Of a DNA stretch of 54,744 nt, positions 41,112-41,354 are shown piece by piece. The notes under the pieces were generated by a model that worked only from the letters and a program-made list of their open reading frames with translations, did not search any database and was not told the DNA's origin. The position numbers and the translations under genes are program-made. The first letter of the stretch is position 1. The number at the start of each line of letters is the position of its first letter. Source of the DNA: Candidatus Omnitrophota bacterium (GTDB lineage Bacteria > Omnitrophota > Gorgyraeia > Zapsychrales > JANLHA01); contig JAGOJP010000001.1 in NCBI GenBank assembly GCA_017995055.1, positions 1 to 54,744 of the forward strand, written 5' to 3'.

Positions 41112-41140
41112 TTGTCATAATTGGCATTATTTGTTACAAT
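41112..41140 (+). promoter_or_regulatory. near-consensus sigma70-like promoter driving the single-unit element and acetyl-CoA synthetase gene
   Basis: TTGTCA (41112-41117), 17-nt spacer, TACAAT (41135-41140). The conserved leader TTTATTCAA begins 8 nt downstream. Confidence 0.6.
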
Positions 41141-41148
41141 AATCCAGT

Positions 41149-41330
41149 TTTATTCAAGGAACATTTAATTTACACGACCCTCGGGAGTGTAAATTAAAAA
41201 TGCGAATTGATCCTGCGGCGAGAGAGCCCAAGCGAACGAGCCGAAGGATCTTGGTTTCCTATCTCGCAGCGTGTTGCGGTTCATTGAGTCCAGAATTTGC
41301 TCTGGGGTTCATATCTTTGATTTTAATAAT
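41149..41330 (+). ncRNA. single-unit member of the repeat family in the 5' leader of the 41355 gene
   Basis: AATTTACAC (41167-41175) pairs with GTGTAAATT (41187-41195); this is a G:C to A:T double change relative to the arrays. GATCCTGCGGC..GCCGAAGGATC. CGCAGCGTGTTGCGG. CCAGAATTTGCTCTGG. Tail GGTTCATATCTTTGATTTT. Confidence 0.55.
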
Positions 41331-41354
41331 TATATTAATAGAAAGGCTGTTGCG

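Follow-up and report, generated by a model that had tools for sequence, protein, structure and literature searches.

The leader of the ADP-forming acetyl-CoA synthetase (ACS) gene in a 54,744-nucleotide (nt) stretch of Candidatus Omnitrophota DNA (i.e. positions 1 to 54,744 of contig JAGOJP010000001.1, assembly GCA_017995055.1; hereafter the window) contains a strongly folded element close behind a promoter, raising the question of whether this element regulates the gene or is a repeat that was inserted there. The original prediction, made from the letters of the window, was of a cis-regulatory RNA. Comparison with orthologous leaders and with other copies of the element leads to a different answer: the ACS feature is probably a single-unit copy of a lineage-restricted, modular, non-autonomous and strand-specific interspersed repeat, lying as a passenger in the 5' untranslated region (UTR) of the ACS gene.

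Filled and empty alleles of the ACS leader

The ACS gene (41355–43466, plus strand, as are all features of this locus) encodes a protein of the acetate–CoA ligase family with the Pfam domains CoA_binding, Succ_CoA_lig, Ligase_CoA_2 and ATP-grasp_5, in agreement with the NCBI name of an identical protein; proteins identical to it are labelled Candidatus Omnitrophota, and the window derives from JGI metagenomes. Its predicted promoter, TTGTCA-17-TACAAT (41112–41140), was recovered by a consensus scan with 10 of 12 matches and has an extended -10 element (i.e. TG before the -10 box). The leader was compared with those of five related loci, L161, L163, L062, L063 and L064 (L-codes label loci from relatives or metagenomes), whose ACS proteins are 97.3, 91, 87, 80 and 75% identical to that of the window, respectively. 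L161, with 95.5% nucleotide identity over the ACS gene, is the ACS locus of a sister metagenome-assembled genome (MAG), CAZAXH01 (GCA_964489065.1), the source also of loci L008–L055; L164 is the same allele as L163 from a second assembly. The promoter is kept in L161, L163, L062 and L063 and only partly in L064, and a leader of the form ...TAATAATTATATTAATAGAAAGG...ATG is kept in all five, in a diverged form in L064.

A 167-nt element (41155–41321) lies within this leader in the window and in three loci of the same species (L001–L003). It was absent from the ACS leaders of all six related genomes (L164 included), down to 75% protein identity; such absence is one half of the outcome by which the original prediction was to be refuted, the other half being random scatter of the element. 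The empty site of L161 reads TACAATAATCCAGTTTTATT/TTTAATAATTATATTAATAGAAAGG, with the stroke marking the junction; the immediate junction is CCAGTTTTATT/TTTAATAATT in the sister MAG and CCAGTTTTATT(CAAGGAAC...ATCTTTGAT)TTTAATAATT in the window. The flanks of the two alleles are identical and exactly 167 nt lie between them in the window, with no base duplicated. As the sister MAG keeps identical flanks without the 167 nt, the alleles indicate a clean insertion that postdates the split from the sister lineage, corresponding to ~4.5% divergence of the ACS gene. The insertion is fixed in the window species across several samples, being identical in two other samples and differing by one single-nucleotide polymorphism in a third.

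The empty allele also defines the ends of the element. Directly 5' of the insert lies TTTTATT (41148–41154), which had been counted among the first bases of the conserved leader and is now seen to be pre-existing target DNA. At the other end, repeat-derived sequence stops at 41321, 33 nt before the ATG at 41355 and not ~25 nt as had been estimated. No target-site duplication is present at the ACS junction, the one clean filled/empty pair. A duplication of the type TTTTATT/TTTGATT was rejected because the empty allele explains every flanking base, and also because the right-hand TTTGAT is constant whatever the left flank.

The remaining, pre-existing 5' UTR (41322–41354), with the ribosome-binding site (RBS) GAAAGG at 41341–41346, is kept in all relatives. 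Through the insert the 5' UTR has grown from ~40 to ~208 nt, with a predicted gain of four stable hairpins. Since the promoter is conserved in relatives and the element sits between promoter and RBS, transcripts of the ACS gene almost certainly include the element in their 5' UTR. Occlusion of the RBS by the insert was considered and rejected, as the predicted unpaired probability of the RBS hardly differs between the leader that has the element (0.30) and the leader that lacks it (0.34), and a sequence scan identified no terminator-like site within the insert. Further upstream, a strong intrinsic-terminator-like hairpin (GAAACCCCGGCC..GGCCGGGGTTTC, 40961–40991) follows mscS and separates this gene from the ACS promoter. 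The synteny of mscS and ACS is kept in all of the relatives but L161, in which a 1.5-kb segment (L161 1462–2967), with a DUF4062 gene and a small minus-strand open reading frame (ORF), lies between mscS and the ACS promoter; this segment is not in the window.

Architecture and predicted fold of the repeat family

The element belongs to a family of ~35 loci with a constant order of modules: a leader, CAATGAGCATT, is followed by one to five units of ~90 nt (range, 89–91) and then by a two-hairpin tail. Arrays were called with Tandem Repeats Finder, tails were located by nhmmer and promoters by the consensus scan. Each unit comprises a hairpin P1 (i.e. a stem, a tandem G·A loop, CC/GG and a variable loop), the linker ATGCGAATTGA and a long hairpin P2, in which the interior GCGAG-W-GAGCC..GCGAA-C-GAGC forms a helix that carries another two tandem G·A motifs. 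The tail consists of the hairpins CGCAGC-TTG-CTGCG and CCAGAGC-TTG-CTCTGG, each followed by GGTTCAT, and ends in ...ACCTTTGAT, with the terminal consensus GGTTCATACCTTTGAT. A T occupies position -1 in nearly all copies, and TTATT lies directly 5' of CAATGAGC in about three-quarters of them.

A further helix, unmentioned in the original prediction, is formed in first units, where UCAAUGAGCAU of the leader pairs with AUGCGAAUUGA of the linker. This helix, P0, has a central tandem G·A and joins P1 in one imperfect hairpin of ~58 nt that was recovered by a consensus minimum free energy (MFE) fold (z = -6.8); folding z-scores for the family ranged from -5 to -7. On 54 distinct units, 85.8% of alignment cells were paired as compared to 28–44% when the partners were slid, the tandem G·A positions were invariant in 52–54 of the 54 units and the linker was highly conserved. 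As a test of which strand folds, G·U and A·C combinations were counted, giving 39 versus 37, or ~16 versus 9 without two dominant columns, with no clear preference for either strand.

Several other features of the family were considered. A closing helix between leader and tail was suggested by TTCAATGAGC of the leader, which is complementary at 8 of 10 positions to an internal tail segment, GTTCATTGAG, but only at 5 of 7 to the true 3' end; this helix was obtained in an MFE fold, is not kept in L008, L046 and L027 and was superseded by P0. A hammerhead-like reading of the P2 core (GUGAGCC..GCGAAC) was dropped, as by eye it does not fit CUGANGA...GAAA and there was no match to an Rfam ribozyme. 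Each unit contains a promoter-like pair, TTTACA/TTAACA-16..18-TAAACT, that matches consensus at 9 of 12 positions, derives from the hairpin-1 palindrome and occurs on both strands in first units; examples in the window are at 16157–16184, 16428–16456 and 18224–18251, with others in every further unit. At L072 (7339–7661, minus strand), two elements stand head to tail with a shared junction, ...TATACCTTT/TATTCAATGAGC..., in which the tail TTTGATT and the leader-flanking TTTTATT are merged into one copy.

The ACS copy has all of these modules in single form and scores 109 bits with a covariance model of the family (i.e. R1). Its leader, CAAGGAACATT (41155–41165), which aligns with the 5' arm of P0, is degenerate: CAAGGAAC replaces CAATGAGC, and two leader substitutions break P0 in the MFE fold. 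The longer segment TTTATTCAAGGAACATTTAATTTACAC (41149–41175) was, as claimed, common to the arrays, recurring at 16137 and 18204 with at most three mismatches (none expected from 100 shuffles). The predicted hairpin 1, AATTTACAC/GTGTAAATT at 41167–41175 and 41187–41195, corresponds to P1 (41164–41198) and extends to a stem of 12 bp (41164–41175 with 41187–41198) with the tandem G·A internal loop, CC/GG and a CTC loop, as supported by the fold and pair counts. The compensatory G:C to A:T change proposed for this stem is present; it is a subfamily mark, found in 5 of 29 first units elsewhere, and not specific to the locus. P1 is followed by the linker (41200–41210), which is the 3' arm of P0 and the most conserved motif across this and a second family (described below). 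Hairpin 2 was also recovered as predicted, pairing GATCCTGCGGC (41209–41219) with GCCGAAGGATC (41240–41250) with one G·A mismatch, and is the outer part of P2 (41209–41250), whose interior comprises a helix with two tandem G·A motifs and the core GCGAGAGAGCCCAAGCGAACGAG. The tail, matched by a hidden Markov model at 41264–41323, folds into hairpins A (CGCA..TGCG, 41265–41278) and B (CCAGA..TCTGG, 41290–41305) and ends in the segment GGTTCATATCTTTGAT (41306–41321). The single unit folds better than shuffled sequence (z = -4.1). In L003, a variant at ~51 (equivalent to window position 41242) turns a G-C pair of P2 into G·U (GAGCCG to GAGTCG); the contig of L003 begins within the element, the assembly having been broken at the repeat.

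Copies in the window and distribution across genomes

Four further copies or fragments were found in the window, all on the plus strand. The first array, with five units (16143–16675), starts 7 nt past the stop codon of the ORF at 14460–16136, and its TTTATT target begins 1 nt past this stop. The second, also of five units (18210–18710), occupies the 5' UTR of a response-regulator gene (18727) and has fused tail hairpins A and B. Tandem Repeats Finder detected these arrays as 5 copies of period 91 (16160–16612) and 4.8 copies of period 89 (18227–18654). A single-unit copy is present at 22.7 kb, as originally predicted; this copy (22675–22840) is decayed and lies in the 5' UTR of a hybrid histidine kinase gene (22952). 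About 200 nt upstream of it, a tail-only fragment (22476–22544) abuts the start codon (22473–22475) of a minus-strand UPF0047/YjbQ gene, so that the translation-initiation region of this gene derives from the repeat, read in antisense. The sister MAG shares this fragment; L065 lacks it.

The occurrence of the family elsewhere was assessed by using the 23-nt P2 core to scan 185,579 genomes, one per species. A single one of them, the sister MAG CAZAXH01, gave real matches, at 10 loci; the other 48 matching stretches were chance matches in high-GC DNA. Over 7.6 kb, CAZAXH01 and the window share 93% identity. This MAG is titled 'uncultured Planctomycetales bacterium', a probable label mismatch because NCBI assigns identical or near-identical proteins to Candidatus Omnitrophota. 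The same pattern yielded ~27 further real loci in metagenomes, nearly all from a single assembly of activated sludge in which the window species is present (e.g. L099 is 100% identical to window positions 16537–18107), and many of these contigs break off inside arrays. No match to the repeat was found in the viral contigs scanned, and the element was absent from ~100 kb of DNA of relatives whose ACS or helicase proteins are 75–91% identical. Neither form of an autonomous copy (i.e. a unit-less leader, or inverted leaders around a gene) was present in ~350 kb of DNA from the lineage. Rfam 15 gave no match at the gathering score over the whole window, and at E values of up to 10 only chance-level matches in the 15.8–23.2 kb and 40.9–41.5 kb regions; in the ACS region the sole weak matches came from the mscS terminator hairpin at 40961–40991.

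Turnover, genomic context and orientation

Empty alleles were also available for two other sites. The 5' UTRs of the response-regulator and kinase genes are filled in the window and the sister MAG and empty in L065 and L066, which retain the response-regulator promoter (GATGCTATAAT) and the kinase promoter (TAGTATAAATATAAATATTTA). All three sites with an empty allele thus fall between a conserved promoter and an RBS.

Seven orthologous pairs of loci carry the element in both the window species and the sister MAG, but the copies differ. Unit numbers were five versus one plus an internally deleted second (window array 2 versus L011), at least three versus one (L072 versus L035) and two versus one (L101 versus L055), and in some orthologous copies hairpin 1 was deleted, segments were scrambled or the tail was truncated. 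Orthologous first units were 85.5% identical (414/484), as compared to 91–94.5% for their flanks, and had closer relatives among the other copies than each other; the unit of the kinase locus was ~80% identical as compared to 93–95% in the adjoining non-repeat intergenic DNA. Differences per site were most frequent at unpaired positions (26%), followed by stems (12.7%), the linker (6.7%) and the G·A positions (1.7%), and several of the stem differences were simultaneous double changes that swapped subfamily signatures. Such a pattern would be expected from turnover and recombination between copies under constraint on the hairpin skeleton, and not from a fixed regulatory RNA evolving in place.

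The neighbouring genes have no common theme, comprising a response regulator, a hybrid kinase, ACS, clpB, an lpxI-like gene, rex, tRNA-Gly and membrane ORFs, and this association of one element with functionally unrelated genes speaks against a dedicated link to ACS. Copies are found just past a -10 box, directly after a terminator hairpin and T-tract, or at most 7 nt after a stop codon (i.e. window array 1, L146 and L082; in L071 the upstream ORF terminates inside the leader), and many tails stop 4–25 nt short of a start codon. In L036 (3813–3900) and L132 (569–667), a copy lies between a promoter-like TTAGAAT and tRNA-Gly(CCC), a position in which it would belong to the 5' leader of the tRNA precursor; the sister-MAG copy at tRNA-Gly has lost most of hairpin 1.

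Random scatter, which together with absence from orthologues was to speak against a cis-regulatory RNA, was not seen: copies were always in the sense orientation and several lay just downstream of promoters. Between co-directional genes the tally was 17 sense and 0 antisense, based on rough ORF calls. GC skew on the element strand averaged +0.126 and was positive in 32 of 33 loci. The window itself is asymmetric, with 34 of 37 long ORFs on the plus strand and a GC skew of +0.127 over 54.7 kb, and every fetched locus of the lineage has similar values when oriented by the element. Because nearly every gene runs in the direction of the skew, an orientation linked to transcription and one linked to replication are inseparable here. 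T-rich targets are located on the sense strand (i.e. terminator tails and AT-rich leaders) and could alone bias both position and orientation.

A larger difference in gene order was observed around array 2. In L065 (966–9480) and L066 (22–9482), a ~9-kb pho block (OmpR-type regulator, kinase, porin, pstSCAB and phoU) lies upstream of the response-regulator gene, preceded in L066 by a DUF2934 gene. In the window (17688–18727) and the sister MAG the DUF2934 gene adjoins array 2 and the block is missing, so that the site of this array is also one of rearrangement. Adjacent genes for an RtcB RNA ligase and an archease (26569–28462) follow the repeat-rich region at a distance of a few kb.

A second, diverged family shares the hairpin skeleton

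A second family was detected in the window species, at L139 (6003–6130) and, with three units, at L088 (9275–9600), and in a relative with an 88%-identical helicase, where a two-unit copy (L065 16160–16330) sits on the T-tract of a terminator; the orthologous site of the window (25540–25610) has no such copy. This family keeps the leader (TTAATGAGCAC), the linker (GTGCGAATTAA) and the tandem G·A loop, most clearly in L139 and L065. P1 is wholly different in sequence, pairing GACTTATG/CATAAGTC or GACTTACG/CGTAAGYC, and in the one to three tandem units a CCCC..GGGG hairpin follows the linker. Between families, P0 exhibited two compensatory exchanges (C-G to U-A and U-A to C-G), and in the first-family copy at L092/L118 the P0 G·A pair is turned into Watson–Crick pairs. 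A joint alignment of both families had 96.7% of cells paired, as compared to 21–37% with slid partners, and eight pairs changed on both sides, a number reached in none of 500 shuffles (mean, 2.5). Covariation of P0 and P1 across the families implies that the hairpin skeleton is older and wider than the first family, with each lineage having its own insertions.

Origin of the ACS element and alternative explanations

These observations favour, with reasonable confidence, the reading of the ACS element as an inserted repeat. A 167-nt copy entered a pre-existing leader, consisting of the ACS promoter and a 5' UTR of ~40 nt, a few nt past the expected transcription start. The family may have spread as a mobile element that is non-autonomous, specific for one strand and reliant on its hairpins. 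Its insertion signature combines a short T-rich target on the left with unduplicated flanks, hairpins close to either end and a uniform orientation along the G-rich strand, and resembles that of IS200/IS605- or REP/RAYT-type elements, which move as single strands by 'peel and paste'. Unit number would shift by slippage or unequal recombination, and sequence would be exchanged between copies. An ACS mRNA with ~170 extra, strongly folded nt could be processed differently or change in stability; there is no sign that the element senses a ligand or controls ACS specifically. Several points weigh against this reading. The junction was read from one near-isogenic empty/filled pair (i.e. the window and L161), and the mechanism of mobilisation is one that we infer. 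The window ORFs that were scanned and the annotated genes of the fetched loci included no transposase domain, of the Y1/HUH type or any other, the rest of the ~350 kb being unscanned. The left and right hairpins are unlike each other, in contrast to the ends of IS608. Moreover, the strict sense orientation, the promoter-proximal insertions, the invariant G·A positions and the architecture of the second family would also fit selection for an RNA function.

Such selection is the basis of an alternative that we consider unlikely, in which the element spreads as DNA and copies are retained for the cis-acting effect of their transcribed hairpins, with unit number tuning this effect. Tandem G·A pairs are a common protein-recognition feature, and hairpins containing them could be a platform for a global RNA-binding protein or nuclease, placing the neighbouring genes under common post-transcriptional control. 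A mobile RNA module of this kind would account for the strictly sense orientation (17:0), the location of the three empty-allele sites between promoter and RBS, the many tails that end 4–25 nt before a start codon, the near-invariance of the G·A positions (52–54 of 54 units) and conservation of the linker, the folding z-scores of -5 to -7, and the retention of P0 and P1 in the diverged family with eight double-sided changes and 96.7% pairing. However, orientation is fully confounded with the G-rich, replication-linked strand (34 of 37 window ORFs being on the plus strand), and copies are also found behind terminators and stop codons and before a tRNA. Orthologous copies gain or lose units, suffer internal deletions and diverge faster than their flanks, P0 is broken in the ACS copy, RBS accessibility is predicted to be unchanged (0.30 versus 0.34) and the host genes have no shared functional theme. 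A bolder proposal, to which we give slightly less weight still, is that the family represents either a transposable RNA device (i.e. a P0+P1+P2 cassette in 5' UTRs, with an invariant tandem G·A loop in both P0 and P1, that binds a protein or directs a nuclease, spreads through Omnitrophota genomes as several diverged families, subjects unrelated genes to shared post-transcriptional control and is dosed by unit number) or a type of single-strand transposon with an expandable array and a non-canonical enzyme.

The remaining explanations are far less probable. If each copy were its own gene for a trans-acting small RNA or protein sponge, the units would titrate a regulator in the manner of CsrB/RsmZ, which likewise have several near-identical GGA-containing modules in one transcript; up to five units per transcript, the GGA motifs in every unit (AAGGGAG and GAAGGAUGU) and the perfect intrinsic terminator behind the sister-MAG copy L046 are in line with this very doubtful idea. 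A CsrA sponge was nonetheless dropped, as both motifs are in predicted stems and not in loops and most copies are not independent genes, having no promoter or terminator of their own and lying within the 5' UTR or 3' region of another gene; in addition, a structured 90-nt unit far exceeds the needs of a binding site, and the copies are recent insertions missing from close relatives. A function at the DNA level is about as improbable, and if anything a little more so. The family would then provide operator arrays or cruciforms for a DNA-binding protein, or an internal promoter of the TTTACA-16-TAAACT type, and the long imperfect palindrome of the P0+P1 region and the promoter-like pairs on the plus strand of each unit (on both strands in first units) could be so explained, but these pairs are weak (9/12) by-products of the palindrome, G·A mismatches and G·U-type variants suit a folded single strand and not duplex recognition, and strict strand orientation is unexpected for a palindromic operator. 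Least credible of all is a dedicated, riboswitch-like leader of the ACS gene. The part of the original prediction that stands is the position between promoter and RBS, behind a near-consensus promoter, with stable, conserved and partly covarying hairpins, as in riboswitches and other Rfam leaders. The part that fails is a conserved regulator of ACS: unlike riboswitches, the element is not conserved with the downstream gene, being a recent insertion that is absent from every related ACS leader examined, including that of a gene with 95.5% nucleotide identity; it stands beside unrelated genes with no association to a gene class, and it has no Rfam match.

Comparison with known repeat elements

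The closest resemblance in way of working is to the BOX elements of pneumococcus, composite boxA-(boxB)n-boxC repeats that are confined to particular species, contain a variable number of boxB modules and undergo co-transcription (PMC3049150). The repeat described here has the same head, tandem middle and tail modules with a middle that varies in number between orthologous loci, is limited to one species and its closest relative, is intergenic and highly base-paired, has no coding capacity and is predicted to be co-transcribed with neighbouring genes. It differs in a unit of ~90 nt with two long hairpins, as compared to ~45 nt for boxB (PMC3049150). It differs also in orientation and position, since BOX elements are ~61% in one orientation, mirroring coding bias, and enriched between convergent genes (PMC3049150), whereas the present copies are exclusively sense (17:0) and mostly upstream of genes. 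BOX elements have ISSpn2-like terminal inverted repeats (PMC3049150), as opposed to the absence here of a duplication and of clear terminal inverted repeats. The likeness is one of operation and not of membership, and sequence homology is not expected across phyla.

Elements of the IS200/IS605 type insert 3' of a specific 4–5-nt target with a strand bias (PMC5027513). The present repeat agrees in having its left end directly 3' of a short target (TTATT/TTTTATT), a junction without duplicated bases in the one clean case, imperfect hairpins close to either end and a right end, TTTGAT, that resembles the target. Its uniform orientation may likewise follow the replication strand, with which gene orientation is confounded. 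Unlike these elements, its left (P0/P1) and right (A/B) hairpins are unrelated in sequence, the left hairpin begins at the very end of the element and not ~19 nt inside, and there is an internal expandable tandem array, of which none is known in IS200/IS605 or REP/RAYT-type elements. A classical miniature inverted-repeat transposable element of the DDE type would differ in the target-site duplication that is missing from the one clean pair at the ACS site; as to terminal inverted repeats, the leader is a better complement of the internal tail segment (8 of 10) than of the true 3' end (5 of 7), and several copies do not keep this pairing. The bcr1 repeat of the Bacillus cereus group is simple and non-modular, unlike the repeat here. 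Repeats of this group, bcr1 and its relatives, have a length of 100–400 bp, restriction to a lineage, mobility linked to a T-rich TTTAT motif and a proposed mechanism resembling site-specific recombination (PMC6542083, citing Okstad 2004 and Kristoffersen 2011), and the two have in common their small size, lineage restriction, tens of copies per genome and T-rich target.

Implications

The repeat falls within a known kind of element, the small composite interspersed repeat, of which it forms a new family in an uncultured phylum; to our knowledge, and as far as a literature search shows, it is the first small interspersed repeat family described in such a phylum. The ACS copy demonstrates that a promoter-proximal, covarying and well-folded 5' UTR element can still be a recent repeat insertion, and that comparison of orthologous leaders quickly settles the question of regulator versus repeat. 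The repeat also breaks assemblies, as seen in contigs that end in arrays, and marks sites of rearrangement. Its filled and empty alleles are natural material for testing the effect of a structured insert on the expression of a central-metabolism gene and, if the sense-only orientation reflects selection at the RNA level, the family would exemplify the spread of regulatory sequence by transposition.

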